In this document: piece by piece, positions 17,329-55,256 of the stretch
How positions within the stretch are numbered: the stretch's first letter is position 1
How the letters are laid out: every line of letters begins with the position of its first letter
NCBI GenBank assembly: GCA_051362555.1
Contig: CM120647.1
Span: forward strand, 19,754,651-19,818,650
Reading direction: 5' to 3'
Length of the DNA stretch: 64,000 nucleotides
DNA from: Lingula anatina
Lineage: Eukaryota; Animalia; Brachiopoda
Notes under the pieces: generated by a model
Told to the model about the DNA's origin: nothing
Seen by the model: only the letters and a program-made list of their open reading frames with translations
Databases searched by the model: none
Made by a program: the position numbers and the translations under genes

Positions 17329-17390
<62 letters not shown>

Positions 17391-18310: not shown

Positions 18311-19155
18311 TCACTCGCCCCCGTTGCCATTAATCTCAACATCTAATTCAATTTGTTCTTGGTGCAGTCCGTCTCTATCAGCTCTTTCAGCTTGGTTTTC
18401 AAGCATTGGCATGAAGTCCACGATGTCATTAAAAAACTTATCCATAGCGTCTTCATTGGGTTTTTCAAAACGCGGCTGTTTCATTAGTTCTCTTACAGAC
18501 GCATATTGTTTATTTTGTTTCAGTTTGCGGTCGAAATCTTCCAAAATTATTGGAATTATTCTTATTTTGTCGTCGTTTAGCTTTTTCCTTGCTCTTCCAC
18601 ATTGGTCATTCACGCCTTCCATTTCAAAATACCGCGGTGAGACGATCATGATGAACCGACTGCTGGCTTCAATGCCAATGTCTTCCTTTTCTGGAAATAC
18701 ACAAAATGTACAAATTTGAATGATTTACTCTGATAATAAACACACACACATACAGCGTGTATTGTTTGAGAACAATGGTCGAGGGTTACTACCCTGTGCT
18801 TCAAACTCCTCTTTCAAACCCAAAAATAATGGAAAACTTTCAACATTAAAAAAGCAGCTTACGTATGGACTTCAATCTTATGGCTGCAAATAAACACATT
18901 TGTTAACTACACGAGTTGAGCATTTGTATCTTTCATTAATATGAAATTCCGCTTACGTCTTGCAATATCCCCGACCCTTTCGTCGGGTTTATATATTCTA
19001 AAACCACGGCGTTCCAACTCTGGTATTAGCCTCCCTTTCACAAACGCTTTGTCCTCTTTTGCGTACTCATTGTACGAAATAAAGGCATGATAGTAGAATC
19101 CTAGAAAATAGAGACGCTTGATATTAGAGCATGACAGAGTTAAATCATGGAGTTG

Positions 19156-19250
<95 letters not shown>

Positions 19251-22200
19251 GTAAGAATTAAGTTCAAATCTATAAATTAAAAGATAATAACAGGGTATCA
19301 ACCAAAAAGAATTTAACCATTTTCTCACAATCAACAGACTGAAAGATTTTAATATTAAGATTTAATTTTAATATAAAGTTTTAATTCTTCATCCAACAAA
19401 CAGTATTCAGGGTAAACCCTGCAGGCGCAAATGGTCTGTAAGCATTTCACCTTCTTAACTAACCCCTTTTTAGTTTTAACAACAATATTTAAACTCTCAT
19501 AAATGTTCGACGTTACCAAGATGAAACAACATACGAATATTGTATATTAATCCATTTTTTCATTGAGAAACTCAACACGTTTTGACAGCACATATTACCA
19601 CAACGTTTAACGTTCTGCAGAATGCTTCCTGGTGACTGACTCTCAATTAAAGAATTGCTTTAATTTACCGTCATAGATGTCGAATATTACCTTTTATTTC
19701 ACCGGTTTCTCTCCACTCATCTGAAAGAGTTATGGCAGAGAGCGTTAACATAAATATGAATCATTAGAAATCTGAACATGGATATTGAAGGACAATTTTT
19801 GTATTAAATACGTTGTTATAGATACGAAACATTTGACGATGGCGGGAGTTTCAGACAGGGTTTAAGTCATACAGCATGCTGTTTAAAAACAGAAACATAA
19901 TCTAAAAACAGTTGTCCGTCTTATTGAGTTTCCTTCAGTCTTAACTTTAATATCTGGTCTTAAACCACTATGAAATAAGAAATTAAAATAAAACAGAATC
20001 CATGTCTGTTTTTCTCTACCTTTTTCTCTACCAACGCGTTTGGACAACATTTGTCAGTATACAAAATGCAAATCACTATTGTCTTATAACGCTAAGGGTT
20101 ATCGTTAACGGCAGCTATTTTTTACCTTCGGCGTCTCCTTCTTTCAAATCATCTGGAACAATTCAAGCAACGATTACATAATAACAATAATAATAATAAT
20201 TTTCCATTAAATGTTATAAAATTAAATTTGTTAAAATATTAGTTAAAATTATTTACAAAACTGATGACAAACACTGGGCGAATTAAAAGTTTTAGTCTTG
20301 CAACCTGAAACCTTCTAGAAAGCATTTTAGATACAGATGGTGGAAATGACAATGAGGCCTTCGAGCTGTTTTCTTGAAAATGAAATCATGAAAAATATAC
20401 GCATGCACAATTAGAAAACAAAATAGCGAACAGCAATTGTCAAACGCCAAGATCTTATTCACGTTGAAATCAAAGTTGCAAATCTTGTAGTGCCTGACCA
20501 CGGCGTGAGAAAATAAACTTACTATCGCCTTCAAAATTTCTCGTTCTTGCAGTCAACTTTACTCTAAGAATTATGCCTTTCCGTAGTGCCCAGATAAAAA
20601 CTATTGGTGCTGAAACTATGATAACGATGCCCACGGAAGCACAAGGAATGATGATATTCAACGCAGGTCTCACACTGGGGATGGCTGCAATTAATGTAAA
20701 ATAAATATAAACTAAGTTTAAAAACTGAATTCATACATATACACAATCCGTATTATTGCGATGTGTAATTATGTAGGACAGTATGTTGAATCGAATATTT
20801 TGCAAAGGAAAAACATTTGTTACATACTGCACCGGTATTGTTAGGCTACAGAGGTGTAAATGCCGACGATTTTCTTATACTTAAAAATTATATTGCATTT
20901 CATAAGGACAGTAGTTGACTTAAAATTATTTGAAGGCAGTTAAAGATTATTTCAACACCACCTCCTCACGTGGCACCATAGGGTTCCTTTGACAAAGATA
21001 TCGAACAAACTTGTGGTGTTGCAGTTTTTGTTTCATCCTTTAGTTCATTTCTAAAAATCATCACCGGTACTTGAACGCAAGGGTCGACTATTGGAATTAT
21101 AGAGACACTATAGCCGATAATACAATGTAACTGTCAGCTGTAATCAAAGCAAAATCAAAAGAAAAGAGCCGCTTAGGAAAAACACACAATGCCTACCCGT
21201 TGGGAGTGGGCCCAAATTAATGATATCTTTATTACACATATCACCGTCATTGCAGAAGCATTCTTTTCCCTGGATGTCCACGATAGTGAAATACTGAAAT
21301 ATAGGTAGCAGTTGATGTACGTCCGAAACAGCTTTGTGACTCAGTTCCTGAAACAATGGACTCTGCGCATCATTCGACATATCCCGACATCCGGGGGTCA
21401 CCAGGAGCTCCACTGCGCAGGACCGGAAGTAAATTGTCATGTTCACAGCTTTGTTTACCTAAAGAAAAAAATGACAATTTATAACAATTTACTCTTGATT
21501 TCTTTTTTCTCTTTATTCTCTTCGCGAGTAGGTGTTTCTTTAAAAATCGGTATGCCATTAATTACATGTATGTTGCAACCACTTCATATTACATGTAAAT
21601 ATGTATAGGGCTTACATGCACTTGTGGTAATGAAAACGCTTACTAAAATGTGAGCCAACTTTCATAATAAATAGAGCCAGCCAGACTTTGTCACCTCTAA
21701 TCTTTTATCTTAGCAGGCCCAAATATATGAAAGACACATATTTACCGATTCGTACACGGTTACCATGCTAACTTGGAACTGGATACATGCTTCGCTGCAA
21801 TTTCTGGTGACATTTATAGCGGTCGGGCTGTCCATGCAGCGGGGGTCAGCTTGTAAAGCTCGGTTCATAAGGGCTATGGCACTCGTCTCATTACCCTCCA
21901 GATACATACAATCTACGCACTGTAGTGCTCCTTGAAAAAAATAACACGATGATAAGACGTTAATATAAAGACCAGCTATAGTTCTATGTTAGATAAGAAG
22001 TGCCTTCTTCAGGACTTCTCCGTGGATTATTCTGAATTTTTAGCAGGCACACTTGTACAAGCAGGCACACAAGCAGAAAACTTTAACAGATGTGGCAGCA
22101 ACACCAGTCTAACAGAACCAGTTTGGTTGCTTGTGCATAGCATTAAAATCGGTCGTTTTATACAATTTGTTTTAAGCCATATTCGCCCAAGGTTCTAATG

Positions 22201-23160
22201 AAATGAAAACGAATATATCAAAATAGCCGTAATTAATAATTGCGGCAGAGATGTGGTTTCTCGGGAGAATTATGAGATTATCTTGGACAGAGAGAATAAC
22301 AAATCAGGAAGTTTTGGAGAGAGCAAGAACAAAGCGTTTCCTTCTAAAAAGCATACGAAAGAGACAGTTGGAATTTTTAGGACACGTAATGCGGAAGGAA
22401 GAGCTGGAACATCTTAGTGTGACAGGCAAGATCAATGGAAAGCGAAGCAGGGGCGAAGCAGGGGCAGGCAAAGATTAACCTGGGAAAACATGTCCTATGG
22501 ACGTGCATTCCCTGGAATGTACTGTCCTACCCGGACCTAGATTCCCAGCTGTATCTTTACGCAGCTAGGACATGTATTCCTGTCGGACATAATTTCCTTT
22601 CACAGTCTAGCTGGGAAAATACGTCCGACTAGGACATCGATACCTGTCTGCAGGACTTAGAATACTAAGTAATGGGTGTCCCCTGGACGTTAGATCCCAG
22701 GAAATTATGTCCTAAGACATGCGTTCCGAGGAATGGAAGAGCCAGGACATGCATTCATAGGACTTTGTGTCCGCAGGACATTCATTCCTAGGAATACATG
22801 TCCTACGGACATGCATTACGGCGGACATCCATTCCCTTCACACCGGCGGCACATGTAGCATTCATAGAACACATTCAGAACAGCGGACTATTGAAAAGCT
22901 TGCCGCTTAATTCTCGATTAGACACTGAATAGATTCCCAGCGGGGATTACGCAATAAGCATTCAAGTGGGGCGGCCATATTTGATCGGCCATATTTGATT
23001 CGGTTAGTCCGCTGTTCTGAATGCGGTCATACATGTACTAACAAACATGCAACTTTTGTTATCTTTTAGTTTCGTAAAAAGCCTCACGTTTTTACTGGTA
23101 CTTACCAACATTCGGAATAACTATAAAATATAAAAGACAAAAAGCCTGCCATAAGTTCAT
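18311..23160 (-). CDS. Gene B1: signal peptide + Ly6/three-finger domain + TM + TIR domain (414 aa)
   Basis: Exons 23160-23106, 21930-21746, 21458-21197, 20684-20523, 20152-20126, 19720-19691, 19100-18957 and 18690-18311 are all GT-AG and give a 1245-nt open frame. The ectodomain has 10 Cys (LQCVDC...ECFCNDGDMCN). TM is IIIPCASVGIVIIVSAPIVFIWAL. TIR reads YHAFISYNEYAKEDKAFVKGRLIPELERRGFRIY...SSRFIMIVSPRY...IIPIILE...KFFNDIVDFMP. Confidence 0.9.
22240..22460 (+). mobile_element. RTE-clade LINE 3' fragment in B1 intron 1
   Basis: AAEMWFLGRIMRLSWTERITNQEVLERA...IRKRQLEFLGHVMRKEELE...GKINGKRSRG is typical of the RTE ORF C-terminus. Confidence 0.85.
22478..22845. repeat. Degenerate tandem array of self-complementary GGACATGCATTCC/TAGGAAT-like units, probably a MITE interior
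   Basis: The ggac(a/g)tgcattcc, tgtcct and aggaca motifs recur throughout. The array is absent from the paralogous B3 intron. Confidence 0.6.
22873..23023. mobile_element. Small MITE-like element
   Basis: Perfect inverted repeat CATTCAGAACAGCGGACTA / TAGTCCGCTGTTCTGAATG about 150 bp apart. Confidence 0.65.
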
Positions 23161-24923: not shown

Positions 24924-26246
24924 TTAATACAAACACCATAACATGCAGTACGTGGCAGCCATTAGGGTGGTTAGCAACAGTTCCAGACTGCACACGCCGC
25001 TGCAGCTTGAAGTTTGAGGCTTGTGTGTAGCAGTAACAGCACTTGAACTGGTCTCTTTAATTCCTTTGGTAGATTTCGAAGACAAAGTCGTCGTGGGATG
25101 TGTGGGTTTTGTAGACTTAGCTGTGATCCTAGTTGTAGATGACTTTGTGGGCGTGGTCGGGGTCACAGATGATTTTGTGGGCGTGGTCGTGGACGTAGAT
25201 GCACTGGAAAGTGTTGTCATCGGTCTGGTACATCCATTTTGGTTACATGTGCAGACTTCGGCTGATGTGGTGTGACTTTGTAGGCCGGTGCCAGTCAAGG
25301 CATCCAATGAAAACAACCCAGTCATGGCTGCGTCACTGTCTGTCAATCGTGAACATCTGTCAGCAGATTTACTCGCAGAGCATAACCGCTCCGTCAGCTT
25401 CATAGTGACGGTCACCAATGACTTAATTAAAGAAAGAAAATATAGTGAAAATAAAAAAAGCCACTTTAGAACCAACATGACAATCACTTTTTGTTAGTTG
25501 GTTTGTTTGTATTCTGTAGGAGAACAAAAAGAATCAATATAGACTTTGATTGGTGGCATGAAATTTAATTGACATTTTTTCTCGTTTACATTACTGTATT
25601 CCACTTAACGTGCTTCTGAAAATTTATGTTGCTTCACCTGCCAACATTTCACATATTCTATTTCATAATGGTTTCAGGCAATGGAATACAAAGCAAAACA
25701 TATCTATTTATAAATGTGCTTGAACTTTCTTGTTTGTTTGTTTGTTGGCTCGTTATTTTTTTAGTTTGTTTGTTTGTATGTATTTTTTTTTTGAATAATT
25801 TATTTTCTTACCGCAGAAATCGTCCCTTCGCCCACAGAGCTCAGACATGACCCACGGCAGCTGACAGTCTTTGTCTGAGATGGATTCGACACACACTTTT
25901 GGTCCATTTCCCCCAGAAACCAGTTCCCAATAAGTCCTAGGAGTAACTGTACCATGAAGTCGCTGGAGGTATACTCCATGTACTCACATTTGGGGCATTG
26001 CACTGCTGGAACTTTTGCATAAATGATGGATGAATACCAGTAAATAAATAAATGAAATAATTGATTTAAAAAGAAACAAGTAATCATCATTTTTACAAAC
26101 TAATGAAAATGAACATTATGCATTCAAATAAAACTTCCGTAAATATTACTTGTAAATCATACTAATGGAAGAGACCTATAACAGTATGACAAAAAAAGTT
26201 CTAAAAATGTCGATGATGATACATGTATTAGAATAATAATAACTAT

Positions 26247-26277
<31 letters not shown>

Positions 26278-29200
26278 CTTTATTGGAGAAATCGCAACCC
26301 GAAGGTTGAAGTTATACAATTACATATATGAATATTTAAGTCAAGGAATCCTGGTCATTTTTGCACTGGTGCACTCCGTAGGCGGTCTCACCTCCCTGGG
26401 GAGCATACATCATTAATATTGCAATCCCTACCTTGTGGTAATGTCGCAAGACTCGTGGTATCCACATTACATCGGTCTGAGTTACACACACACAGGCGTC
26501 CCTCCATGGCGGTCACAGTGGATACACTGTTTGGGAGGATGTTCTGAATGTCCTCCAGATTAGCCAAGGTCAGATTCATACACCCTTCTTCGACACTGGT
26601 CGTTGCTAAGCAACCGCGTACCCAGTCACGTGAGTTAAGAGCGGCGTTGGTGTCCTAGAGAGATAGATATTGGGGATAGGATTTAGGCCATCTTCTGAGT
26701 CTTCCAGAAGACGGTCAGATTTTCAAGTTTACATTGACGGGTATCTGTCTTTTTCTGTCGGAAGACGGTCAAAAATGGGGGATGGATCCACAAATATAAT
26801 TTGGAAAACTGTCAGAAAATATCTCTGGATCCGCCCCTGCAGGTACACTGTACCGTATAGCCAATAAAAAACAAGACTACTGGTACGCGTTTAATCGATA
26901 ACTGATTTAATACTCGTCAGATTACCATCCGCCCCCTTCCTTATGAATAGGTATTACTTTATTAATACAATGCAACCGACGTGTAGCCGCATGTTAGAAG
27001 ACAATGTGTGTTACGCACAGCAGTAGGAGGCCGCTAGCCCTTCCCAGCAAGGAGTCAACTAAGCCGCAAGTTAGAAGACAATGCGTGATTACTAACAGCA
27101 GTAGGAGGCCGCTACCGCTCCCCAGCAAGGAGTCAACACAGCAGTGCGTAACCCGGGCTTAATTAGGGGTTATTAGTTGTCCACTTATGATCGGTATTGT
27201 TCGTCTTGATTGCAGCACACTTCCTACTCACTATTGGTTCGCCCGCCTCTTCTTTAAATGCTCTCTCAAACCATTCCTCAGTCAGCCGAGAATGGAAACA
27301 CGTTTATCTGCCGATAAACTTCGTCGTTGATGTATTATTTGGCATCATTCTACAGTGGGTCATAAGGCTCTATCTATGATTTTTTTTCGTCTGGCATTTT
27401 ACCAGATTAAGCTGACGCTTGAAAACTGAATTTAATGAATAATTTTCTCACGTGCACGTATCCAGCTAATTTTACGACAATAACTTCCAGGGCACCTCCG
27501 CCATTTGCAATTGTAGACGAACCACGTGTTTCCAACTGATAGGTCAATACAACTATACCAGACCCATTGCACGATAAAAAACAGTTTATATTTAATGAAT
27601 TAAAAAAAACATTTGAGGATCGCGATTTTCTATTGATAAACTATCGATGGTATCCCTGTATTAAATCATCCACTGCTACCCCCTCTGTTGTAGTGTAGCA
27701 TGACTCGTATCACAAGATGGTCTTAGAAATGAAGTAATTAAGACAGGCCTACACTCTGATAGTTTTAAGTCTATTATTAACCCTAATGTCGTTTAATTTC
27801 TTGTCATTCTTTCTAGAACTCCCTGAGCCATCGCAAAGTTATTTGCCAGGACATTAAAAGGCTACTTCTTAACGGATTTTTATTTTATTTTCACCGAGTC
27901 CAAAAATGTTCGAGGACGTCTCTGTCGTTATCGCCGTTTCTCGGACGTCATTTAAACGGCGTTGAACGGCAGTCCCAGACAAAGGATCGGCAGTTTCTAA
28001 ATAAAAGAACTTGTAAATGCTGCATCTAGCCAGTTATTGTTCCTAAGTAAAGAGAGGCGATAATGATCTGTTCTTTCTTCTAGCTTAGTTTGTCGACTAA
28101 AATGAACAATTTTAGGCCTACAATGCAACCACCAATTATTACGACCATTAGGGCCTAATGAGGTTCTGTTCTTTGCTACACTCCCTTTCTTCATGATCGC
28201 CAAACCTGTGGGGTGCTGTGTTTTAAATATATAAAAGGGGTCTCGCGAGGTAAAGCTATAACAATGAACTAAAATCCTATGAATAGGCCTATCTAATAAA
28301 CCATGAAGCACGTAGCCTAGGCCTCTTTGACCGACATCAAATTTTTACATTCTTTGTTATAATAAGGGGGCGAACGTAGTCTAATTTGTCTTTTCGTGGT
28401 GATTTTGCTCGAAATAGCGGAGTCAAGTAAATCGGTGATTTACCGTTGGTAAAATCATCGCTCCTGCGTCCTCACAGATTACTTTCTAATCCCCCGTAAT
28501 TAACGCAGTCAGGAATAAGCGCTGAAATAGGGGATTTTGTATCAGGGAAAAAATTAGTATTTATCTTTTGTTATCACGTATCTGTATTATGTAATCCTGT
28601 AACTCATTTTCCCAAGGCAACCACCAATTATGACGACCATTAATGAAGTTCTCTGCTACACTCTCTCCTCATGATCACTTGCTCGATCGTGAAACCCTGG
28701 AGGTGTTGGGTATATATTTGGGGTAGTTTACTATAGCATGCTACACTCTCCTCATGATCACTTGCTCGATCGTGAAATCTGGAGTGAAACCCTTTGTTTG
28801 TCTAACAATGGTTTAAATAAATAAAAAGGGTGTTACGGAGGTGAGGTTGCTTAAGTCATAAGAATAATGAACGAAAAAATACGATGAACATTTAATACAC
28901 CACGAGGCACGTATGTTTTGACCGCCATCGCCTTTTTTACATAAGATGTTTCATCAAGAGGGCAGATGTAGTCCAATATGTCTTTTGTTGGTTATTCTGC
29001 TTCAGGTGGCTGAGATTAGTTGATCGATGATGTACTGTTGGTAAGAGTAGCTATCATCACATCCGCGTCCTAACGGATTACTTTCCAACCCCCCATAATT
29101 AACGCAGCCAGGAATAGGCGCTGAAATAGGGGGTATTATATCTGAAATTAATTTTTGTAATTATCTATCCGTAAAATAAGAATCGTTACATTATCACGTA

Positions 29201-29606
29201 TTTTTCCAGATTGAAAATATATTATAATATGCACACTGATCAAATTATAAAGAAAATCTCCAGATGTAAACAAAGGACAGTCAAGTATCACTCATCCCAG
29301 GCTGCAGGGCAGATAAAGAGAATTGAATGGAGCGCGAGTGATCTGGCAACCCTACAATTTCGTCATAATGATTCATGGGCAAACAATAGAAGCATGAAAT
29401 TAACACCTTTTACAGTGTGAAGGACGACACCTAATGAGGCTTTTGTTTTCCCCCTGGATGGTTATTACAAAGTAAGAATGTTGACGTAAGTGTTATCTGC
29501 TTCCTGGTGAAGACTTTTGCGTGTTCAAAGGAACAATGGAAATGTCATTTCAAAACAAAGAGCCACATTTCCCTACTTAGGTGGCCAAAATTTTGTCAAT
29601 GAAACG

Positions 29607-29637
<31 letters not shown>

Positions 29638-32151
29638 ACAAAATCACCAGCTGTTACTGACTGAGTCTAACTCAAATGCAAAAAGGTACGCACAGCGACA
29701 AAGCGCTATTGTAAACAGTGACCCGACGATGAGATCAATAGATGTATAAATGACTTATTGTACTATAAAATTGTACCCCTGCCCCTACTTGTATATTATT
29801 ACACACATAAGGCCATCCTATACCAGAGTTGCAGATTGATTTTCCATTATGCAGTCTCTTGCACTGAAGAAAAATACTCATATATAATTTGCGGTCCTAG
29901 TAGAGGGTCGGTCCTCACTCAAATCAAAATAAACTAGCAAACATGAAAATTGACAAGCTGTATTAGGATGTAAAGTGTTGAGAACCCTTTAAACACGGTG
30001 TATGGTAATATGCACGTTTAGACAAATTTTAATTTTAATTTCAATTTAATTTAATTTTATTTTTAATTAAAATTAATATTACCGAAATGAGGAAATGTCG
30101 TTTGCGTCATGTATCAATATTTGTGCGCATAATAGTACCTACGTTATAAACATTCAGCAAAGATCTTTGGAAGGCCGATATTTCGTCGTTTATATCAAAT
30201 GAAAACTATCTGATACCCATCGTATCAATCATTATACATGATGAGCGATTAGCATACTAATTTATGTCCCCAGTCATAATAACTTTAACAATTACAACAA
30301 TCCTCCCTACTCTGCTTTTCGTTGCAAAAACAATTAGCCACAACTGTTTTAACATTAAAAGATATCAATAATAATGATAATTCCAAAATTTCAAAAGTAC
30401 CTTTGGGGTACGAACTCCCGTCGGGTAGGTTACAACGTTTGCAACGACGTTAACCGTTATTCCACCAGTGCTATTACACTTTCACACCGATATCGACAGA
30501 TCTGTATTGCCGCGCATGCCGAAGCTTTGCGGAAATTGCCGAAGGCTAGGAAAATTCTTCAAAATATATAATTTTATTACTTTTAATCAACTCTCTCACT
30601 GCCCTGAGGTATAATGGCTAAAACCTTTCAGTTGTCACCAGACTTTGTAATTTGGGAGAAAAAAGTGAAACAGGAACTTCTGGTGATGAATAATAGATTA
30701 TAGTGCTGCAAGGTCTTGTTTTCTATCCCTGATGTACGAGTAGCTTTTTTACAGTTTCTATAATTCTCTTAACGTATGAAAATATGCAGGTTTTCTGATA
30801 CAATAAGACTTTGATAAAATCAAAACCAATTTTACTTTTCAAGTCGGGAGTCGGGATAAATATCGGCAAGGTGGAGATATTTCTCGCCGGCGCTTCCGCA
30901 ACAGCAAGACTGAAGGACGCAAGTTACAAAGCGAAACATATTTAGTCAAGTTAAAGACTTAATTACCGGCCTAACAGCGGCGATAGTGACTCCCGCTGTG
31001 AGCGACTTGCGCTGTCTATCGTAATCCCCCTATCATTAACACTGTCGGGGGCACACGCACGTTCGCCGTGCGTGTGCTATTAAAGTGACCGGGGACTAAA
31101 TAGCTACACGGTACATCGAAATAATTACACATCCTCATATCCTCTTTTGTATATTTGTATCAGTATATATTAACAAATATTATTCATTTATGGGTTGCCA
31201 CAATAAATTTACGTGAGCTAAGTCAAGGTCGCATACATTTTTTGTAATATTTGCAGTTTTGACTTTTCCCATTATCCCCGAAGTATAAATATTTTCACTG
31301 TTGACGTCCATAGTATCCATCAATGTGAATAGAAATCAAATATGTTTTGAATGTTCTATAAATCATCAGTGCAAATATTTCACAAAATACGGGGGTCACA
31401 GACATGACCAAAATGTTCATTTTTTTCTGAAATGGCACTTATCTGGTATTTTATTATTTTGAATATCGGGATAAGCTTTGGGGAAGAGAGAGAAAAACAA
31501 ATAAATAGATTGGCGCCCTTCTTACTGCTCTACCCCTGATACCTGCACTACCAGACTTGAGACACCGTGGATACTTACTGTCTTTGTTAAGGACTGGGAA
31601 ACCCTCAGATAATAGCAGGACCCACTGCACTCTCCAAAGCTTGTCGCCGCAGAGGGGTTATCCTCACACCGCCGGTCGTAATTCCGGTAAAGGGTTTGTG
31701 AGAGAGGGTCCAAGTTGTAACCAAATGACTGGCAGATAAGGCATTGAATGGCTGTTCCTAGTTTTGACAAATATATAAATTCAAAAGAAATAACAAGTCC
31801 CTTGCTCTCACGGGTCTTCCTCAAGTTTATAAGTTTTTAAAGGGGATTAAATAAACCCAACTCTTCTCCATACACCCTTTATATTTACATACGACTGGTT
31901 ATTTGTGCAATAAAATAAGATAAAATAAGATTAAATAATATTAAATTGAATTCAATAAAATAAATAAAATTTAAAAATAATTTAGATCAGTCGCACTTCT
32001 CTCCCTCCCCTATTTTTTACTGTATTTGTACTATCTAAAGGCAAAACTATTTGGTCTATGTACATGTAGCATGAAAGTGCACAAATACATGTAATTTACC
32101 TGACTCCACAAAACACAGGAGGAACACCAAGCTTTGGCCAATAGAAGCCAT
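24924..32151 (-). CDS. Gene C1: signal peptide + two Ly6/three-finger domains + Thr/Ser mucin-like stalk + GPI-anchor-type C-terminus (383 aa)
   Basis: Exons 32151-32100, 31757-31579, 26654-26432, 26011-25812 and 25421-24924 give 1152 nt in frame. There are two 10-Cys domains (IQCLIC...LCVCNSDRCN and VQCPKC...VCTCNQNGCT). The tail SSCSGVCSLELLLTTLMAATYCMLWCLY* has no cytoplasmic region. Confidence 0.88.
26670..31420. other. About 4.7 kb of copy-specific inserted DNA in C1 intron 2, probably nested transposon remnants
   Basis: The same intron is only about 230-270 bp in C3 and C2. The insert contains a roughly 75-bp tandem duplication (26985-27140) and two diverged roughly 500-bp copies (28125-28600 and 28617-29200). 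No convincing ORF. Confidence 0.65.
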
Positions 32152-34087: not shown

Positions 34088-34220
34088 ACCATGACGGCAC
34101 CATCGTTACTCACCTTGCGTAACTTACTCGCAATGCCACCCAACAGGGGGGCAGAGGTGAAGCTGTGGAACAGACACGGGGGGGGGACCAGCAGTTTATG
34201 CTTGATCGGACGTAGTTATA
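34088..34220 (+). pseudogene. Ricin-B lectin exon-3 relic
   Basis: gacggcaccatcgttactcaccttg...ggggcagaggtgaagctgtggaacagacacgggggg...accagcagtttatgcttgatcgg matches 11323-11460 with indels. It is joined directly to a copy of lectin-2 intron 1 at a poly-G tract. Confidence 0.85.
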
Positions 34221-35261: not shown

Positions 35262-38090
35262 TTAAATTGCGTCTTGAATTTCCACCCTTTCTTCATACCT
35301 ATGGTACCTTGCCTCGTGGTTTCTCCTTTTCAGGCAAAAACATTTTATATCTAAGATATCCTTATTAGGCATACACAGCCGAAGTTTTTCCCGGAATTTT
35401 TCTAGATCTCGCTCTACTTCATTTTCTTCTCCGTTCTCTTCTGCCGGCCACCTAAGTTGTATAGTAGGTCTGCAAAACGTACCGTCTATTAAGTTGAGGA
35501 TCAGTTTATTTGTTTCATCTGTTTCAAGTTTATCTCGGTCAATATCCTGGAGGATGATTGCAATGATTTTCAACTTGTCAGCGTTTACCTGGGCTTGTGC
35601 CACTGCCAAAATGTCTTTGTGTTTTGGTGTAAAACACTTTTCGGAGACGAGCATGATGAACAGTCGACTTTGTCTTATTATTACTTCTAAATGGTCTGGA
35701 ACTAAATCTGAAATGAGAAAAGAAGTCATTATAATTTAATACATGCTTATTCCTTAACACCGATGCAGAGGGGGGTCACTGTGCATCCAGTTGTGACTAA
35801 GGTTTTATACAAATAAGGAATCTATAAAATCAAAGCATCATCGAAATAAGTTCAATAGTTGTGTTTACAAGGGAGTGTTTACAGTGTATTTACGATGGCA
35901 ACGACATAAGTACAATATAGTGCACAAGCAAATTACTTTCCGATCACAATGAACTCTTTAAACATTTTTTATTGTAATCAAACCTTTTCTATTAATCGGA
36001 GATATGAATATAATCTATGTCATGTACCTACCCCCGGGGACATCATCCTGGAATTTCACGTTGTAATCACCCCTTAGGCGATTAAGCTCGTGTAAGCATT
36101 TCTTTATTCTTTCCTTTTCATTCTTATTCCCTATTTCTTCTTCTGGCTCTTCGTCTTCATCATCGGTGTCATAAAAAGAAACAACTGCGTCATACTTGTA
36201 CGTATCTGAACCTGTCAGAATGAATAAGGAAAACAACAGAAACTGATAAGAATTATTTTACACTAATTCAACTCATTTTAAGATTTTTTTTCAAAAATAA
36301 ACCTTCTTATTTAATGAATATATTTGTGAAAAGGTTTCTTTGTTCAGAAAAAAGTGAAACAAACGTGTATGTCCTTTTTTTTAACATTAACATTTAACAT
36401 TTTTATTTGCATTTAAATTAACTTAAATAAGTATGTGAATAGTAAGAGTCATGCACGTTGATGCAAATGAAGTATACTAGAACATCACATGTCACTATTG
36501 CAGTTTTTTGGGTAAAGAGGCAAACTGCAATATAAAATAATATAGCAAACAACATTGGCTTTTGTTGTAAGCTTTGGAGAAATGGTTCCACTTCAGAACA
36601 TAGAAGTTGTTAGGGTGCTTCAGACACAACACTCCTAGACTGAAGACACAGAAAACATTACAGAAATATGAAGTTAGAAATATGAAGATTTAGTGGTGCA
36701 AAAGAAGACATAAATTGTAAGTTCATTGTTATGCTCATATATTGGGAGGTGTTATTTGTTTTTGTGCTTATATATACATATATATCTTCGGCATAGAATG
36801 ACCGTTCACAGACAACAAATAAGACAACCTAAATATCAGTGCATGTCTGTGAGTGGGCACATTAGGAATGCTCTATGAACTAAAACCAAGGACTTTGCGG
36901 TATTCCCATTTTATAAATTCACTAGGGAAACAACCCAAACAGAAAGGGAAATGAAAGAAAATCTATTCATTAATGTGTATAAACCTACACTGAATATATA
37001 AAAGCACTGGTAAAAGCAACAATTAAACACCCATTGTTACAGACGTCACATTTTAGCCTTCATGACATCACCTAGTAACAAATAAACAAAAACCCCTGAA
37101 GAAAGAATAAAACCGGTATATATATGATGTGCTCAAAACTTCAAAGGGTTTTTGTCAGTTATGTAAGCATATTTTTGTCTTTTTTACGTACAGTTACACT
37201 TGTGTAAACAGCAAGCCACTGAACAAAGCATATGAGTGCAGATAGCCTTCTTTGTATCACTCGAAGCGTCATCCGTCACAGGACCTGTCAGAATGAATAA
37301 AGGAAACAATAGCGACAGATAGGAATTATTTTCAATTAATTTTGACAATATTTTTCCGGAACAAACCCTTATTTTCTGAATATATTTTTGAAAAGGTTTC
37401 CTACTTAAAGTGAAAGTGAAACAAACAATTATTTCGATTTTTAAGTATGCCAACACTAACTTAAATAAATCCGTGAATAGCCAAAGTAATACATGTTGTT
37501 TACACGAACATCATATGTCATTATTGCAATGTTTGGGTAAAGAGGCAAATTGCTATAAAATAATATAACAAACAGCATTGCCAGTTGGTGAAAAACATGT
37601 AGTTCCACTTCAGAACATAGAGGTTGTTAGGGTGCTTCAGACACAACACTCGAAGACCGGTTGCAATCAGGATAACCAGCGTCAAGGTTATTACTGGTGC
37701 TATGATGGTCCATGGGAGGTAATATTTGACAATTTCTACAATGACATAAAACTAATAATAAATTATGACAAACGTAAAATAATGTATTTTATCCAATGGA
37801 AACAATAAATTATACAATTGTGTCAATGACATGTATTATACCAATAAATCGTTATAAAATATAAGTCTACACTTTATTAATATAGTCTAACAAATACGTA
37901 ATGCATCAGTGATATGTTCAGTTCGATATTTAAAACATAAAACAACCAGTCGACATTTGAACAATGGAAACTGCACATTATGTTACATTCAATTTGTTTT
38001 TCAAAACATTTGTTGTCACTCAAATTTTACAATTGCATTTTTATACAGGAAGTGACTTGTGACAGTCAGTATCTGTAAGAAAGTAATGTA

Positions 38091-38162
<72 letters not shown>

Positions 38163-39892
38163 AGACGCCAAGTCTCAGGAGTAATTGTAACATAAAGTCG
38201 CTGGACGTATACTCCATGTACTCACATTTGGGACATATTACACTGCTCGAATTGTAAGGATTTACATAAATAATGGATGAATACCAGTGTTTATACTAAT
38301 GCAATATTTGATTAAAAAAAACAATTATCATTTATGCAAATTAATGGAAATGAACACTGTGTATGCAGTTATTAACTTTGGCTGAAATTTCCCCGTGGCT
38401 TTCTTCAACCCCAAGCAGAAATAATTGACCGACAACGAAGGATTTGATAAATGTTCAAACATACACTGTATTTTTTAGATTTTATAACTTATAAAAACAA
38501 AAGTGATAAATTTGGTGTTGTATCTAGATCATGGAGATTCAATGACATGAGGTCCATTAACTAAAATTGATTGCCCTCACGTGACTGCCTCTCGGCCAAT
38601 CGGGAAGCTTCAAAATTCATGATCATGCAACACTACTTGAAGCTTGATTGGATCTTAGGGACATGAAATTATCATTTACAGTTGATGAGGGGTCCACTTC
38701 ATTGCATTAATGCGTGAATGAGAAGACGTGAAAGAATATAAAACCTCCGTATATATTACTTGTAAATTATACTTATGGGAGAGACCTATAACTGTATGAT
38801 AAAAAAAAATTCCAAAAAATGTCGATGATGATATTAAAATGATTATAATTATTATTAATATTGTAATCCCTACCTTGCGGTAATGTCACAAGACTCGTGG
38901 TATCGACATTACATCGGTCTGAGTTACACACACACAGGCGTCCCTCCATGGCGGTCACATTGGACACGCTGTTCGGGAGGATGTTCCGAATGTCCTCCAG
39001 ATTAGCCAAGGTCAGATTCATACACCCTTCCTCGACATTGATCGTTGCTAAGCAACCGCGTACCCAGTCACGTGAGTTGACAGCGGAGTTAGTGTCCTAG
39101 AGTGATACTTTTTTTAATATTTATTTATCTATTATTATTTTTAACAACAAGTGAGATCCACAAGGGGGTTCATAGGTAGGTATATAAGGTGCAAAACTAA
39201 GAGTAAATACAAATGACCCTTATATATTACTGTTTTAAATATTACTGTTTTGGATATATAGCACAACTAAGCTAAGGAAAAATGAGTGAACAAAACCAAA
39301 ATAGCCTGACCCCACCTCCTCAGTTCTTCTCAAGAAACCCACTACCACACCAGAGACTTACTGTCTTTGTTAAGGACCGGGAAACCCTCAGAAAATAGCA
39401 GGACCCACTGCACTCTCCAAAGCTTGTCGCCGCAGAAGGGTTATCCTCACACCGCCGGTCGTAATTCCGGTATAGGTTTTGTGAAATGGAGTCCAAATTG
39501 TAACCAAATGACTGGCAGATAAGGCACTGAATGGCTGTTCCTAGTTTTGAAAAATTAATAAAGTTAAACTCCTAACAAGTTCCTTGCTTTCACGGTTCGC
39601 AATCAAGTTTAAATTTGAAAAAGGGGATTAAGTAAATCCAAAACTTCTCCAAGCACTCTTGAAATGTAAACTTGGTTGTGTAAAACATACATGGAACAGT
39701 CGCGCCTCTCCTCCCCTCCCCTATCTTTCTATCATATGTGTACTGTTTATAGGCAAAACTATTAGGCCTATATATATATATATACTGGTATGTACCCCCT
39801 GTACCTGTAGCATGAATGTACATAAATACACGTAATTTACCTGGCTGTACAAAACACAGGAGGACAACCAAGCTTTGACCAATAGAAGCCAT
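35262..39892 (-). CDS. Chimeric gene C2/A2: C-type signal peptide and three-finger domain 1 joined to A-type TM, Cys-rich linker and TIR (about 444 aa)
   Basis: Exons 39892-39841, 39540-39362 and 39096-38874 are C-type. Exons 37735-37574, 37284-37192, 36211-36032 and 35707-35262 are A-type. Together they give 1335 nt in frame with a phase-1 to phase-1 join. Expression is unverified. Confidence 0.7.
38162..38252 (-). pseudogene. Decayed, truncated C-type exon 4 at the deletion junction
   Basis: Homologous to the 5' part of exon 26011-25812. The acceptor AG is mutated (ttacaa) and the start of the exon is disrupted. Homology ends at the (TC)n(TG)n microsatellite at 38094-38158. Confidence 0.8.
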
Positions 39893-42107: not shown

Positions 42108-43789
42108 TTATAGAAATCCCACCCTCTCTTCATTCTGATGGTAGTTTTCCCTATTCACTTTAGGCAAGCACAACCTAATTTTTTCCAGGAGTTTTTTTAG
42201 ACTTTTTTCCCTTTTATTTTGTTCAAGTGCGTTCCTTTCTGCGGGCCACCTGAGTTTTACAGTAGGCTTACAAAACGTGCCGTCCATTAAGTCAAGGATC
42301 AATTTATTTGTTTCATCCTTTTTAAGTTTATCTCGGTCAATCTCCTGGAGGAAGATTGCAATGATTTTCATTTTTCCAGCGTTTACCTGGGTTTGTGCCA
42401 CTGCCAAAATGTCTTTGTGTTTCGGTGTAAAATAATTCTCGGAGACGAGCATGATGAACAGTCTACTTTGCCTTATCATTTCATCTAAGGCTTCTGAAAT
42501 TTGACCTGAAGTGAGAAAAAAGAAATTATGGTAATTAAGTGATGTTTACTCATTAACACCGATTAAAGTGGTTGGAGGTCTGCACATTTTCATCCATGTA
42601 AGTAGGACTGTATAAAAAGGTTTAACAACTGTGTTATGTACGGAGTGTTTACAGTGCGTTTACGATGGCAATGACATTATACCAATGTAGTACACCAGGA
42701 AATTAACTTCCGATCAAAAAATATTTTTTCTTAGTATAATCAAACTTTTTAATAGGGGATATTAATATAATGTATTACATCTACTTACGCCCGGGTTTAC
42801 CAGTCTGGAGCATCACTTTGTAATCAACTTCTAGGCGTTTGACAAGCTCCTGTACGCATTCTTTTGCATCTTCCTCTGGCTTTTCTTCGTCGGTCTCACA
42901 AAAAGAAATGGCCACGTCATACATATATGAATCTGTCGGAATGAATAAGTAAAACAATAGTAACAAATAATCATCATTTTCCATTTATCTAATTTTGAGA
43001 TTTTGTTTCAAAAATAAACCTAATTTTCTAAATATATATTGTAGAAAAGGGTCCTTCTCCAAGTAAAAGTGAAAAAAGTATTCGATTCTTTACTATACCA
43101 ATATTAACTTTAATAAATGCGTAATACATGTAGTATACACGAACATCACATGTCACTATTGCAATTTTTGGGCAAAGAGGCAAATTGCAATATGAAACAA
43201 TATAACAAACAGCATTGCCTTCTGCTGCTGCAGCTTCGGTGCAATGGTTCCACTTCAGAACATAGAGGTTGTTAGGAAGCTTCAGACACAACACTCGAAG
43301 ACCGGTTGCAATCAGGATAACCAGCGTCAAGGCTATAACAGGTGCTATGATGACCCATGGGAGGTACAACTTGACAATAGCTGCAGTGGTAGATGACATT
43401 AAACGAATGATAAATGATGACAAACGTATCATAATGTGCTTTATCCAATGACTGAAAAAGAAATAATAGAACTGATTCATCAATTAAAATACAATAGATT
43501 GTTATAACATATAATACCACATATTACAATTATAGTCTAACAATTATAAAAAACATCAGTGATATATTCAGTCCGATACTGAAGGTACATGTACGTAGGC
43601 CTACTTATGCATAAAACAGCTAGTAGTCGACATTTGTATATGGGAACCATGCGACATTGAATCTGTTTTGCCGAACACTTATAATATATATTATTTGCTC
43701 GAACAATTGCATTTGCATTCAGCGTTTTGGCAGTTAGTATACATAAGTAGATCACTTTGTTTATTTCTCTTATCAGTGAAAAGCAGGTG

Positions 43790-43863
<74 letters not shown>

Positions 43864-44178
43864 CGTGCGCGTGTCACCACCTACCAGTTGGCAACGGGTT
43901 AACATTCTTCACTTCAGCATTACACCGGTCTTCATCACTACAGTAGCATTCAACACCTTGAAAATCTTCAAACTTTCCCGTTCTGAAGTAACTAAAAAAC
44001 CTCTCGAATCCTATCATTCTCAAATCCGTCGAGCCTTTTCGCGCGTGGTCCCCAGTCATGTAACGACATCCGTCCCCCTCGGGACGCTTTGCGGCACAGA
44101 ACCGTAAGCTATAGGCTACCGTATGGCTCTGTAAACATACGAATGATAAATTTTACATAATAATAGAAAGAAGAACAA

Positions 44179-44233
<55 letters not shown>

Positions 44234-45398
44234 TATATTGAGTCTAAAACCAAAATTTGTTCCCGAAGATGACCAATGCAAATGCAACGTGATATATACA
44301 TAATAAAAAGGCTAGTAAAAGAAATATAGGGTATACCTACGTGATATTTGTCACGTTTTGAGATTGTGTCATTCAACATGTCCAGTTATGTTTTTTACAT
44401 ACAAAAAGGACAAAATGTCAAAACCCCTAACCCTACCCTTGTTTACGGTATTTCTTAAGAGAAAGTAATTTGAATATCTCGTGATTAACCCACCTCCTGT
44501 TTATTTATATGTCGAAAAGAAAATCCCATCTGTACACAGCCTTCACTGCACTCGGCGGTCGTGTTCACGGTCGTGTGGCTTCCATTACAGCGCACGTCTC
44601 CTAGTGGGCCCAACACACTAACGCCATCTATCTCAAGGTATTTGCAGTCGATGCACAGAATGCCGAGAACTAAAATAAAACGCTGTGTTGATATGTAATC
44701 TTCAAAGAGTTTGTGGTCTTGGTTTGTTTATAATTCTTCTTTTTTCTCTCTGCCTGTCTGTCTGTCTGCATAATAATTAAGTTCGTGCCTTATCCGTAGC
44801 AACTAAAAAAATAGCAATTAATTCACTCATTTTCAAAACCAAAAAACAATATGATAATACAAAATAAATAAATAAAAAGGAAAAAGGGACGATATAGAAC
44901 CAAATGTGTTGGTTCAGTCTATCTGTCCTCTTTATGGGACAAAAAAAATATATAGGACTTCTTTGTTTTTAAAGAATTACAAAATGTGCAGAAGACCAGG
45001 ACAATCACCAGGACAATATACATATATGTGTGTGTGTGTGTGTGTTTGTGTGCGTGTGCATTGTATGCCCCATTTCCAAACCTCACAGCATAAATTTAGC
45101 TCCTGGCCCGTATTTTTTTGGTAGCTTAAAATCTAACATTTTATTTGTGTTTCACTCCGTCGTCTACTTGTTACTAAAAGACAAAAATAATGGACTTTAT
45201 ATCGATAAATTTTTGTTCCAGATAGACTGAATTTTTTGTACACATAAAGGTATCTTTGCTAAAATTTCACATGTTAAAGACACGGATCAGATGTTTACTA
45301 AACGTGACCGTTTTGTTTGTGACCACGTTAGAGATTACCTTACCTCTGCGGTTGAATGTGACGAGAAGAAACACTGCAACCGTACACAGCTGACACAT
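42108..45398 (-). CDS. Gene A3: signal peptide + Ly6/three-finger domain + TM + TIR domain (392 aa)
   Basis: Exons 45398-45344, 44669-44494, 44128-43885, 43380-43219 (requires a GC donor, AG|gcaatg), 42932-42789 and 42505-42108 give 1179 nt in frame. The TM and first TIR exon lengths (162 and 144 nt) equal those of gene B. Confidence 0.8.
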
Positions 45399-51600: not shown

Positions 51601-52966
51601 TATCCTCTGTTCAGATATTGTCCATTTACTAAAGTAAAAGGTTGACCGCCCATAAAATGTGCAACACTTACTTGATAAAATAACTTTCGTTAATTTGAAA
51701 CTTACTTGTGAAAATACCTTGACATTTTCATATCCTTGACATTTATAGAATTGCTGCATGTGGTGTCACAACTAGACCAAAAGGAGTCCTGTTCCATTTT
51801 TTATGGTCATTTGGGTCTAAATGTAACTAAAGGAGCGAAAAACCAAAAAAGAGTAAAGACTGTTGTCAGTCAGATTATATAGTAGTCTTTTTTTACTTTA
51901 AAGGGGTTTTAGTGGCCATATTAGAATATTCAGACATGTCCCTATATAACAAATTGCTTAGAATCCTGTTCTGTACAATTGAGCCAATTTTCATGCTTGT
52001 AGTTTTAAGTGCATGATGAATTCACCATACTGCTGCTGTGAGTGGCCTGTTTTTCTTATTTTTGGAGGCCATTTTGGATTTCTATACACTTAAAGAATCA
52101 AATATTGATACTTCATGCACACCATAGTCTTGTCTAACCATAAAATGTTATCTTAAGTTATTAAATGATTATATATACTTGAAGTTTTAATTTGAACGGG
52201 TATTTGTGTCGGCTATATTGGATTTGGGGGCCATATATTGAAATTTTTAGACATGCTCATACATCCAAAAGTACTTGGAATCCTGTTTTACAACTGTACC
52301 AAATGCCATGTTTGTAGTTTTTGATGAATTAACCACTCTGCTGGATATCTTGGATTAGTAGAGTGCTTTTTACTATTGGCGGCCATTTTGGATTTAATAC
52401 ACCTAAAAAAGCAAATATTGATTCTGAATTCATACTGTGGTGTTTTTTAACCTTTGTATGATATTTACGCCCTTAAAAGACTATATACTTGAAGTTTTAA
52501 TTAGAAGCCGTATTTTTGGAGGCCATCTTGGATTTGAAGGCCATTTTTAAAATTTTGGATATGCCCATACATCCAAACTTGCTCAGAATTTCATTTTCCA
52601 CAAACCTGCCAAATTTTATGCTTGTAGTTTTAAGTGCTTGATGAATTCCCCATTCAAATGGATATCTTGAATAAATGGTCTGTTTTTTTTACTTTTGGCG
52701 GCCATTTTGGATTTAATACACCTGAAGGATTCATACCATGGTGTCTTCTAACCTTTATATGATATTTTAAGTCATTAGAAGACTATGTACTTGAGGTTTT
52801 AATTTGAAAAGGTATTTTGGTGGCCATATTGGATTTGACGGCCATTTTGGAATTTTCAGACATGCCCATATATCCAAATTTGCTTAGAATTTTATTGTCC
52901 ATAAGTGTGCCAAATTTCATGCTTGTAGGTAAAAAATGCACAATTTTTCACCAATTTCCTGGACTA
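48272..52966. mobile_element. Academ-like DNA transposon (degenerate/non-autonomous) inserted in the last exon of gene B3
   Basis: Termini are TAGTCCAAGAAATTGGTG...CACCAATTTCCTGGACTA, with long imperfect TIRs and repeated (A)ATATGGCCGCC-type subrepeats. The 3-bp TSD TAA lies at 48269-48271 and 52967-52969. TAG...CTA ends with a 3-bp TSD fit Academ, but the superfamily call is an inference. Confidence 0.8.
48625..49810 (-). mobile_element. L2-clade LINE 3' fragment nested in the DNA transposon
   Basis: ORF 48847-49773 reads (FGVPQGSV)LGPLIFCIY...[10 protein letters not shown]...LKINDEKTE...[12 protein letters not shown]...[10 protein letters not shown]...[10 protein letters not shown]. The element ends in an (ATT)n tail. 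Confidence 0.92.
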
Positions 52967-55192
52967 TAAGCTTTGGCATGTAGTCTACGATGTCGTCAAA
53001 AAACTTGTCCATTGCGTCTTCATTTGGTTTCTTCAAACGTGGCTGTTCCAAAAGTTTTCTTACAGATGTATAGTCTGTGCCGTCATTCCTTTGCAAAAGG
53101 TAGTGATCGAAATCGAAATTTTCCATGATTATTGGAATTATTCTCAATTTGTTGTCCTTTAACCGATTCCTTACTCTGCCACATAGGTCATTCACGCCAT
53201 CCATATCAAGGTACTGTGAGGAGACGATCATGATGAACCGACTGCTGGCATTAATTCCAATGTTTTCTGGTCCTGAAAACGCAAAATATAGCTTAAACCC
53301 GTGAACAATAGGCACTGATTCATGCAGTAACGATAACAATATTTAACTATGTAAATTTTTAACTCACATATACAGTGTATATTGTTAGTGGTCGATGTAC
53401 TTAACTCTGTGTTTCAAACTCTCTAATTCAACCGCAATAAATAATAACTATTACAAGACAGTCTATGTTTGGATTCGAATTTCATGACTGCATAGAAAAA
53501 TTGTCAACTTATCTAATTGAGCATTTGTATCTGAGCTTATACTATATGAAGTATTTTGATTATGAACTGTCACATACGTTTTACAACTTTTCCAGTCCTT
53601 TCGTCAGGTTTATATATTTTATAACCGCGCCGTTCCAACTCTGGTATAAGGTGTCCTTTCACAAACGCTTTGTCCTCTTTTGCGGACTCATTGTACGAAA
53701 TAAAGGCATGATAGTAGAATTCTGGAAAAAAGAGGAGTTTGACACCAGAGCCACAAAGTTGTTAATATATACACTCTAGAATTAAGATAAAATCTATAAC
53801 TTTAAAGATAATGACAGGCTATTAACAGGAAGGATACTAACCATTTCCTTACAATGAACAGACTCAAAGATTAAGACGAACTTTATACAACAAACAGCAT
53901 TAAGAGTAATTCACATGAAAATAGTAGATGAGTCCATTTCTTCATTGAGAAATGTTGCGGGTTGCACATATATAACCACAATGTTTTACATATTGTATGC
54001 TTGAGGCTGTCACAACAAATTGCTGTTATAGCTGTCAATCCTTACCTTTTATTTCTAAGGTTGCTCCGAGCTCATCTGAAAGAGTTGAGGCAACAAGCAT
54101 AAATGCGTGCATGTGCATGATTTAGAATTGTAAACATGGGCCTTAAACGACATTTTTTTAAAGAAAATCCGTTATAGGTACGAAATATTTGACTATGGCG
54201 GGTGTGTCAGTTAGAGTTTCAGTCTGACATTAATTTAAGCTGTTTTGTTGAAATACAGAAAAATAAAGAAATAATCTGAAAACATCTTAGTGATTAATTT
54301 TCATTCAGTTTTAACTTCAATATCTGGACTTAACGATTTCGAATGGTAAAATTAAATAGAAGAAAACAATAAAGAACGTCTATTTTTCTCTTATGCCTTA
54401 TTAACCCAGAGCGTTGGGACAACATTTGTTACAATACAAAATGCAAGTCACGGTGGTCTTAGGGTTTACTGATAATGGAAGCTATATCTTACCTTCGGGG
54501 TCTCCTTCATTCAAAACGTCTGGAACAAATTACACAATAATAAGAATACAGAAAAGCCATATTACTATAAAATATAAACAGCCTTACAAGTTTTTTTAAA
54601 TAAATACACAGGTAGAGAATATTAAGCAATAATACTCAAACGCCAATATATATATATGTATTTCTTACGTTGAAATCAAAGAGAAGGTTGCAAATCTTGC
54701 AGTTTGCCTAAACCTCGGCGAGAGAAAATTGTAACAAACTTACTGTCACCATCAATATGTCTCGACCATGCGTTCAAATCTGCTCTTAGAATTTTGCCTT
54801 TCCGTAGTGCCCAGAAGAAAACTATTGCTGCTGAAACTATGATTACGATTCCCACAATAACACAAGGAATGATGATATTCCACGGAGGTCGCTCCCTGGG
54901 AATGGCTGCAATTAATGTAAAATAAATATAAACTAAGTTTTAAAACTGAATTCATAGGCATACACACATGATTACAATCCGTATCATTGTGATATGTGTT
55001 ATTATGTAGGATATTTTGTTGAACCTAATATTTTTCAAAGGAAAACATTTGTCACTGCAACAACATACTTACAGGTGCCAACAACATTCTGTTACTTATT
55101 AATTGTATAACATTTCACTAGCTGATACCCGTCACATCAATCATTGCACCTTGATTAGAGATTAGCCTTCAGGTGCAAAAAGAATCATCAAC

Positions 55193-55256
<64 letters not shown>

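Follow-up and report, generated by a model that had tools for sequence, protein, structure and literature searches.

The 64,000-nt stretch of Lingula anatina DNA analysed here (the window) carries a minus-strand tandem array of three gene types, which we call A, B, and C, arranged in the order C3, B3, A3, unit 2, C1, B1, A1, and followed by lectin-like exons, as laid out by self-BLAST and exon modelling. The C genes code for a signal peptide, two ten-cysteine domains, a Ser/Thr stalk, and a hydrophobic tail, and the A and B genes each for a signal peptide, one ten-cysteine domain, a transmembrane (TM) helix, and a TIR domain. In unit 2, C exons 1-3, encoding the signal peptide and a ten-cysteine domain like that of Ly6/uPAR (LU) proteins, are joined to four A exons encoding the TM helix, a Cys-rich segment, and (in two exons) the TIR domain, and the seven exons form an open 444-aa frame without a stop. 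We consider it likely that unit 2 is a transcribed in-frame chimera for a probable single-pass surface receptor, with a C-type LU-like ectodomain and an A-type TM-TIR part. Its likely source is a duplicated C-B-A unit from which the central part was lost. The features of unit 2 are as follows (X numbers denote sequencing runs):

39841..39892, minus strand: fusion exon 1, C type; ATG and signal peptide, ends in phase 1 (model; hydrophobic at residues 7-27; joint 39540/39841 in X5, which may be a C paralogue)
39362..39540, minus strand: fusion exon 2, C type; first LU-like half with Cys 1-5 (model; joint 39096/39362 in X4 and X5, with paralogue-like letters)
38874..39096, minus strand: fusion exon 3, C type; second LU-like half, ending CxCxxxxCN ... 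LPQ, with a phase-1 donor (model; QVR profile E 0.078; stranded RNA depth in X12 and X13)
38170..38251, minus strand: decayed remnant of C exon 4, now intronic (acceptor AG changed to AA, 2-nt insertion, 8/78 private substitutions)
38159..38169, no strand: breakpoint zone between C and A homology; 11 nt without clear assignment (self-comparison)
38095..38158, no strand: (TC)17.5(TG)15 microsatellite from A intron 3 (Tandem Repeats Finder, TRF)
37574..37735, minus strand: fusion exon 4, A type; TM helix and juxtamembrane part, weak GTTTGT donor (joints 38874/37735 in X12, X13, X4, and X5, and 37574/37284 in X4; hydropathy at residues 156-185)
37192..37284, minus strand: fusion exon 5, A1 type; Cys-rich cytoplasmic linker, absent from A3 (joint 37192/36211 in X11, X13, X12, and X5)
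36212..36640, minus strand: second copy of the TM-exon tail and intron, within intron 5 (self-comparison; skipped by joint 37192/36211)
36032..36211, minus strand: fusion exon 6; TIR box 1 (YKYDAVVSFY), acidic insertion, and BB-loop-like QDDVPG (model; joint 36032/35707 in X13, X4, and X5)
35262..35707, minus strand: fusion exon 7; remaining TIR, tail, and stop (model; TIR_2 profile E 0.057)

By self-BLAST, homology to C extends from ~41190 down to 38170 and homology to A from 38158 down, with no 3' half of C exon 4 or exon 5, no B, and no A exons 1-3 in between; the breakpoint is resolvable only to 38170-38159. These boundaries agree with the initial annotation, which held that unit 2 lacks the 3' half of C, all of B, and the 5' half of A, and TRF likewise places the (TC)n(TG)n tract of A intron 3 at the junction, as it had described. 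Exon 3 of C ends in phase 1 (CAAG/gtaggg, 38874) and the TM exon begins in phase 1 (tgtag/AA, 37735), so that its phase-1/phase-1 join of the first C-type LU-like domain (LU1) to TM-TIR is borne out by the open frame. The seven exons that it counted as usable are all open, with two refinements supported by RNA, namely the weak GTTTGT donor at 37574, predicted beforehand and also used by the public A1 model P0013, and the Cys-rich exon (37284-37192) between TM and TIR. The last exon is 72% identical to that of A1. The exon-4 remnant has indeed decayed and lost its AG at 38253-38252, but two AGs persist 6 and 9 nt on, each followed by an immediate stop. We also considered C2 as a secreted single-LU gene using these spare AGs and rejected it: no such joint with reference letters was found, and the 38874/38236 joint in X4 bears the letters of an intact exon 4.

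Splicing of the fusion gene

Raw RNA runs X11, X13, X14, and X17 were mapped at 95% likeness and runs X12, X13, X4, and X5 at 86%, leaving out the repeat at 38085-38168; X4 and X5 are labelled 'DNA?' yet behave as spliced, exon-high data, and their support was counted as contigs. Sequences joining 38874 to 37735, for which the initial annotation had suggested looking, occur in 4/4 runs at 86% likeness from three studies (P4, P1, and P3) and in 4/7 distinct runs over both mappings, although study P1, where the best-matching DNA is also found, may not count as independent. The support comprises four reads with two starts in X12 (shorter side 56), one read in X13 (shorter side 74), one contig in X4 (shorter side 57), and one contig in X5 with the exact reference junction (shorter side 26). 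The remaining five introns are also spliced in the data, the exon 1-2 and 2-3 joints possibly stemming from C paralogues, and at 95% likeness X11 and X13 show stranded depth on the TIR and Cys-rich exons (X13 also on exon 3) along with the joint 37192/36211. Unit 2 is hence a transcribed gene, beyond a mere assembly pattern, with the spliced in-frame transcript of two parents' exons (38874/37735) that defines a chimeric gene.

Several observations weigh against this reading. No C-to-A joint is listed in X11, X13, X14, or X17 at 95% likeness, X14 and X17 are nearly without depth on the unit 2 exons, raw reads over the joint are few (5, from two runs), and no single read or contig in the runs mapped covers exon 1 through TIR. 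Moreover, the X12, X13, and X4 sequences have a variant base at 37735 together with other differences and so stem from a second allele or a near paralogue. P0010, an old public model with a faulty join, contains an A2-like TIR with a 4-residue deletion, which resembles a 12-nt deletion in X4, directly ahead of C1-/B1-like sequence; from this resemblance and continuation, the variant sequence type is probably the other haplotype.

A bystander locus, with the junction reads coming from C-to-A read-through splicing that skips B or from another fused copy, appears very unlikely. The variant reads have two TM-exon bases (37695 and 37692) in common with A3, along with at least eight other differences, and further C, A, and B copies are present in public models. 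However, these reads retain the A2-specific second TM-exon base (37734), where A1 and A3 differ, no X11 or X13 reads fall on A3 at 95% likeness, and the X5 contig is exact over 26 nt in which A3 and A1 each differ at 5 positions. Still less credible is a misassembly at the microsatellite, with the C-B-A middle actually present in the animal. Although no record bridges 38085-38168, spliced RNA connects both sides; near-identical X4 intron contigs lie on either side of the repeat (38207-38903 and 37658-38084), the flanking intron halves being at similarly low X4 depth (6.9 and 13.5), and decay of the exon-4 piece beside the repeat is not what a join error would produce.

The weak TM donor raises another option, viz., that intron retention yields mostly a decoy without TIR (LU-TM), with the full TIR form being minor. 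The GTTTGT donor, a read-on stop 17 codons later, the high contig depth over 37436-37609 in X4 and X5, and the TIR-less public models P0007 and P0012 of A-type genes would all fit such a decoy. Yet X4 does contain the spliced form (joint 37574/37284, depth 28.8), the X5 contig over the intron, with its 6 differences, could stem from a paralogue, and contig depth is an unreliable gauge, leaving the decoy quite unlikely in our view.

Parent genes and their shared domains

The intact genes flanking the chimera are as follows:

59423..61895, minus strand: gene C3, intact parent type; signal peptide, two LU-like domains, Ser/Thr stalk, and hydrophobic tail (exon model; 98.5% to XP_013418755.1)
52917..57419, minus strand: gene B3, LU-TM-TIR (exon model; 98.4% to XP_013418756.1)
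42108..45398, minus strand: gene A3, LU-TM-TIR (exon model; frame kept only via a predicted GC donor at 43219)
24924..32151, minus strand: gene C1, intact parent type (exon model)
18311..23160, minus strand: gene B1, LU-TM-TIR (99.7% to XP_013409484.1; exon-1 bounds read from the sequence)
12182..17697, minus strand: gene A1, LU-TM-Cys-TIR, nearest to the TM part of the fusion (exon model; 99.6% to XP_013409468.1)

The closest public proteins are from Lingula anatina itself, with 98-99.7% identity to the parent genes; XP_013409468.1 (A1), XP_013418756.1, XP_013409484.1, and XP_013418738.1 (B type), and XP_013418755.1 (C3) are the models concerned. They are labelled 'uncharacterized' or 'A-agglutinin anchorage subunit', and the A/B models are without LU annotation. 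The C-A fusion is not modelled among the 7 and 3 public protein matches or their listed cluster members. Homologue searches with the fusion's last exon among longer proteins (0/253 candidates) and with the A3 last exon against representative proteins (0 matches) are weak blanks, both having missed the public A-type proteins.

Signal exon and two domain exons show intron phases 1-0-1 in C, A, and B, thereby matching the LU gene structure of a signal exon plus two LU exons in phase-1 introns; LU domains further have ten cysteines, an Asn after Cys 10, and a length of 60-90 residues (PMC6600238; for this and the other papers cited, statements refer to the portions of text available). Ten cysteines followed by Asn are present in the fusion, C3 LU1, A1, A3, and B3, with C3 LU2 having ten followed by T. 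The first-to-last Cys distance, at 117 residues in the fusion and 123-133 in A/B, exceeds the LU range; being of longer span and nearer to the quiver/Ly-6-related type, the domain is filed as LU-like. The QVR profile is matched over its whole length (1-86/86) with E 0.009 (P0001) and 1.8e-4 (P0002), at 17-23 bits and thus below the cut-off of 27.3, and the A and B proteins gave no LU profile match at E<=1 in Pfam. In structural comparisons, all ten nearest entries to the Atlas model of C3 residues 19-150 had TM-scores of 0.50-0.62, below the Atlas naming bar, with 9/10 named or annotated as Ly6/quiver/uPAR/activin-receptor type. Our own C3 fold was poor (predicted local distance difference test, pLDDT, 35; 50-59 in the domain), recovering CD177, TEX101, and GPIHBP1 at Z 3.5-3.9, level with unrelated chains, and Foldseek with this model found nothing at E<=0.001. 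The PDB sequence search with the LU alignment returned one match, which was unrelated. With the fusion ectodomain being 25% identical to that of A and 29% to that of B, sequence comparison indicates that the C, A, and B ectodomains are homologous yet distant. The likeness to the Ly6/uPAR, quiver/sleepless type lies in the phase-1 exon set, the ten cysteines, the Asn after Cys 10, and the clustering of the genes (PMC6600238), as well as in the weak whole-profile QVR matches; as against Ly6/uPAR proteins, the window domain is longer (117-133 residues), has CxC for CC, and is attached to TM-TIR.

The TIR assignment rests on A3 and B, which score above the Pfam cut-offs, and on matches to the TIR domains of Toll-like receptors (TLRs): the A3 last exon reaches 31 bits against a TIR cut-off of 21.3, the B proteins, among them XP_013418756.1 (B3-like), exceed the cut-offs for both TIR and TIR_2, and an A/B profile matches TLR TIRs (TLR1/2/6/10/15) at E 2e-6 to 1e-5. 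Counting against the assignment in the fusion itself, its last exon alone falls below the Pfam cut-off (14.4 vs 28 bits), and its TIR bears an acidic insertion. The fusion has YKYDAVVSFY (box 1) and QDDVPG (BB-loop-like), comparable to the box 1 and BB-loop (box 2) motifs of PMC7075850, but the RD of box 2 is absent, and A1 and A3 differ there. Foldseek with the single-exon TIR fold (pLDDT 53) found nothing at E<=0.001. No exon or parent protein has a Pfam match to leucine-rich repeats (LRRs), as in TLRs, or to immunoglobulin (Ig) domains, as in IL-1 receptor-like proteins. The window proteins thus have in common with Toll-like/IL-1-receptor-like proteins the type I membrane layout with a C-terminal TIR, and differ from them in an ectodomain of one LU-like domain without LRR or Ig and in an A-type TIR with an acidic insertion and a Cys-rich linker.

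NADase TIRs carry a catalytic Glu in a WxxxE motif. This motif was not seen in the alignment with TLR15/TLR6, and we therefore propose that the fusion TIR would act as a scaffold TIR.

The C terminus of the C protein has a hydrophobic stretch at 386-404 (Kyte-Doolittle score 1.64) behind the Ser/Thr stalk, and C is a candidate glycosylphosphatidylinositol (GPI)-anchored protein, which would be without a cytoplasmic part. The Cys-rich cytoplasmic exon is confined to A1 and A2 (15655-15572 and 37284-37192), is apparently derived from sequence behind a duplicated acceptor, and is a candidate palmitoylation or metal-binding patch. The A3 TM exon (43380-43219) is 8 nt longer than that of A1 ahead of the common donor region, with only a GC donor (AAG/gcaatg) preserving the frame into the TIR exons, and P0007, the public model of an A3-like gene, is without TIR; A3 may accordingly be either a decoy or a user of a GC-AG intron. 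In B3 the last exon is interrupted by a ~4.7-kb repeat insertion (window 52960-48262), within which ~49800-48850 reads like what we take to be a reverse-transcriptase fragment. The tail of the public model P0006 (…DQERIELDVENDGNVH) is found past this insertion at ~48250, and this B3 haplotype therefore has an altered C-terminus with the TIR whole.

Elsewhere in the window, intron 2 of C1 (31579-26654) has grown by insertions to ~4.9 kb from the ~0.25 kb seen in C2/C3. The window end (63587-64000) holds the 3' flank of a further A copy (A4); an old public model, P0004, fuses A-type pieces to C3, consistent with the array continuing, and more array copies are present in public models on three scaffolds. 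Beside the array lie two facing copies of a small lectin-like gene, presumably ricin-B-like (11480-11230, 10474-10331, 6309-6166, and 5330-5090). A short dispersed repeat at 40528-40810 (upstream of C2) and 7359-7581 has both-strand reads in X11, X13, X14, and X17. What we take to be LINE-type retroelement-like fragments occupy 47500-46200 (the B3-A3 gap), 32950-32480 (upstream of C1), and 1-500.

Origin and retention of the chimera

One further feature bears on the source of unit 2:

34092..34214, no strand: fragment of the lectin-like exon found behind A1 (11457-11330), marking the 3' flank of unit 2 as a copy of that of unit 1 (self-comparison)

Given that a piece of the lectin exon lies behind both A1 and A2, unit 2 looks like a whole C-B-A copy minus its middle. 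The piece behind A2 then runs into C-upstream-like sequence; a C-upstream-like piece also occurs at ~9140-8950, and that marker may therefore be a dispersed repeat. Three-way counts reveal a mosaic: unit 2 is closest to unit 3 from upstream to exon 2 (e.g., 32:10:8), closest to unit 1 from intron 3 through the TM region (e.g., 47:10:21), and mixed in the TIR region. A single deletion is the simplest history, though unproven, as template switching or unequal crossover with conversion would leave the same pattern. A tandem duplication of the A3 3' half plus the C 5' half was rejected as the source, because it would not bring the lectin fragment behind A2 and because the A2 TM region groups with A1, not A3. 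Tracts matching the junction repeat occur at 43794-43862, (TC)15.5(TG)19.5, and 16492-16524, (TG)16.5 (TRF), the A intron-3 tracts sitting ~25 nt behind the A exon-3 donor; since the microsatellite occupies 14% of A3 intron 3, its place at the junction is suggestive only. From the proposed deletion ending at a microsatellite there remains the tract at the junction, without a causal role for it and, in view of the mosaic, without a single clean deletion.

Since phase-1 introns flank every LU exon set as well as the TM exon, any break that puts C exon 3 next to the TM exon of A would be repaired by splicing. The broken C exon 4 would then have turned intronic and decayed as the used exons stayed open, a difference that suggests selection for the greater part of the gene's existence. 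Transcription presumably proceeds from the promoter of C (X4 depth drops to about 1 above 39872), and the predicted product is a type I membrane protein. The initial annotation saw here an exon shuffling that made a signalling receptor; the spliced in-frame C/A chimera stands, but A and B were LU-TM-TIR already, and the event is therefore a swap of one LU ectodomain for another.

The asymmetric decay that it noted is supported by counts: the remnant has 8/78 private changes vs 15/454 in the C2 exons still in use (Fisher p=0.011), and the equivalent comparison is null in C3 (p=0.76) and C1 (p=0.49). The ratio of nonsynonymous to synonymous change (dN/dS), which it had proposed comparing between the C2 and A2 exons and their paralogues, is below 1, with pairwise values of 0.25 for C exons 1-3 (p~1e-4) and 0.52-0.64 for TM-TIR; counting private changes only at codons where the other two copies agree, it is 0.27 for A2 (p=0.001). 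In 3000 runs of a neutral simulation, frame and splice sites stayed intact in 0.9% at 7% divergence and in 0.03% at 10%. Set against these, the C2-private ratio of 0.35 is not significant (p=0.08), and the read variants, with 13 nonsynonymous to 5 synonymous among the 18 classified (a subset of those found), do not depart from the neutral ratio (p=0.57), so that the haplotype differences look near neutral. Further, open exons could also be the work of gene conversion from intact copies, with no selection involved, unit 2 being visibly mosaic. Selection to keep the fusion is thus suggested for its past by the asymmetric decay and by dN/dS <1, but not for the present day.

These same points would suit a chimera that, though transcribed and spliced, is only a passenger, neutral or in decay, with an inherited promoter, matching phases, and conversion-kept exons. 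The 13:5 ratio, the mosaic ancestry, the low read depth, and the A2-like TIR of P0010, which differs by 15.5% over 116 aa with its 4-aa deletion, speak for it. Against it stand 17 classified codons without a stop, a listed exonic deletion that is in frame (12 nt at 35412), the A2-private dN/dS, and two divergent sequence types that both splice the joint. High amino-acid diversity is also expected from diversifying selection on a receptor, which likewise counts against a passenger. We regard a passenger as unlikely and favour a retained chimeric gene for a predicted receptor.

Place among known receptors

LU domains likewise serve as the ligand-binding ectodomains of signalling receptors in TGF-beta/activin receptor kinases and starfish LU-GPCRs (PMC13719153; PMC6600238), the signalling part in the window genes being TIR as opposed to a kinase or 7TM. 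A survey from 2026 that covers 387 invertebrate genomes, Lingula among them, describes LU-only, LU-kinase, and LU-7TM forms and ten or so rarer partners, with LU and LU-kinase as the only brachiopod forms; in its main text, supplements apart, LU-TIR is not among the listed partners and 'TIR domain' occurs 0 times (PMC13719153). The design was probably missed there because its domains score below the Pfam cut-offs. The available text of PMC2858798, in which multiple origins are argued for Ig-TIR and LRR-TIR, and of PMC2575513 has 0 mentions of Ly6 or uPAR, and no paper on an LU-TIR receptor was found in the literature searched, outside of which lie Gerdol 2017 (TIR survey) and 2018 (Lingula immunity) that may describe the parents. 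The shuffling of amphioxus TIRs similarly yielded new combinations, some of them expressed (Zhang et al., 2008, PMC2575513); as compared to what the available text describes there, in Lingula the two parents can still be seen next to the breakpoint and the decayed remnant. Chimeric genes and new TIR combinations are already known. The LU-TM-TIR design itself is a more novel point than the fusion: the cluster likely makes three-finger plus TIR receptors, a design absent from the surveys examined.

In functional terms, the chimera would couple binding by the C ectodomain to adaptor recruitment via TIR-TIR contacts, most likely in innate immunity. More tentatively, and as a possibility that we hold short of probable, the array might constitute a third ectodomain class of brachiopod membrane TIR proteins beside LRR (TLR) and Ig (IL-1R), namely a three-finger-TIR array with GPI-type genes and phase-1 domain swaps, in which the unit 2 gene is working and selected, with its alleles diverging under ligand pressure. 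The locus offers a rare, still-readable case of exon shuffling, in which spliced RNA can be set beside both parents, the breakpoint, and the leftover exon in its decayed state, and the LU-TM-TIR design bears on the view of LU as a 'proto-module' that is not truly mobile (PMC6600238, conclusion). Parent C (predicted to be without a cytoplasmic part), parent A, and the chimera would furthermore form a natural test set for how an ectodomain may redirect TIR signalling.

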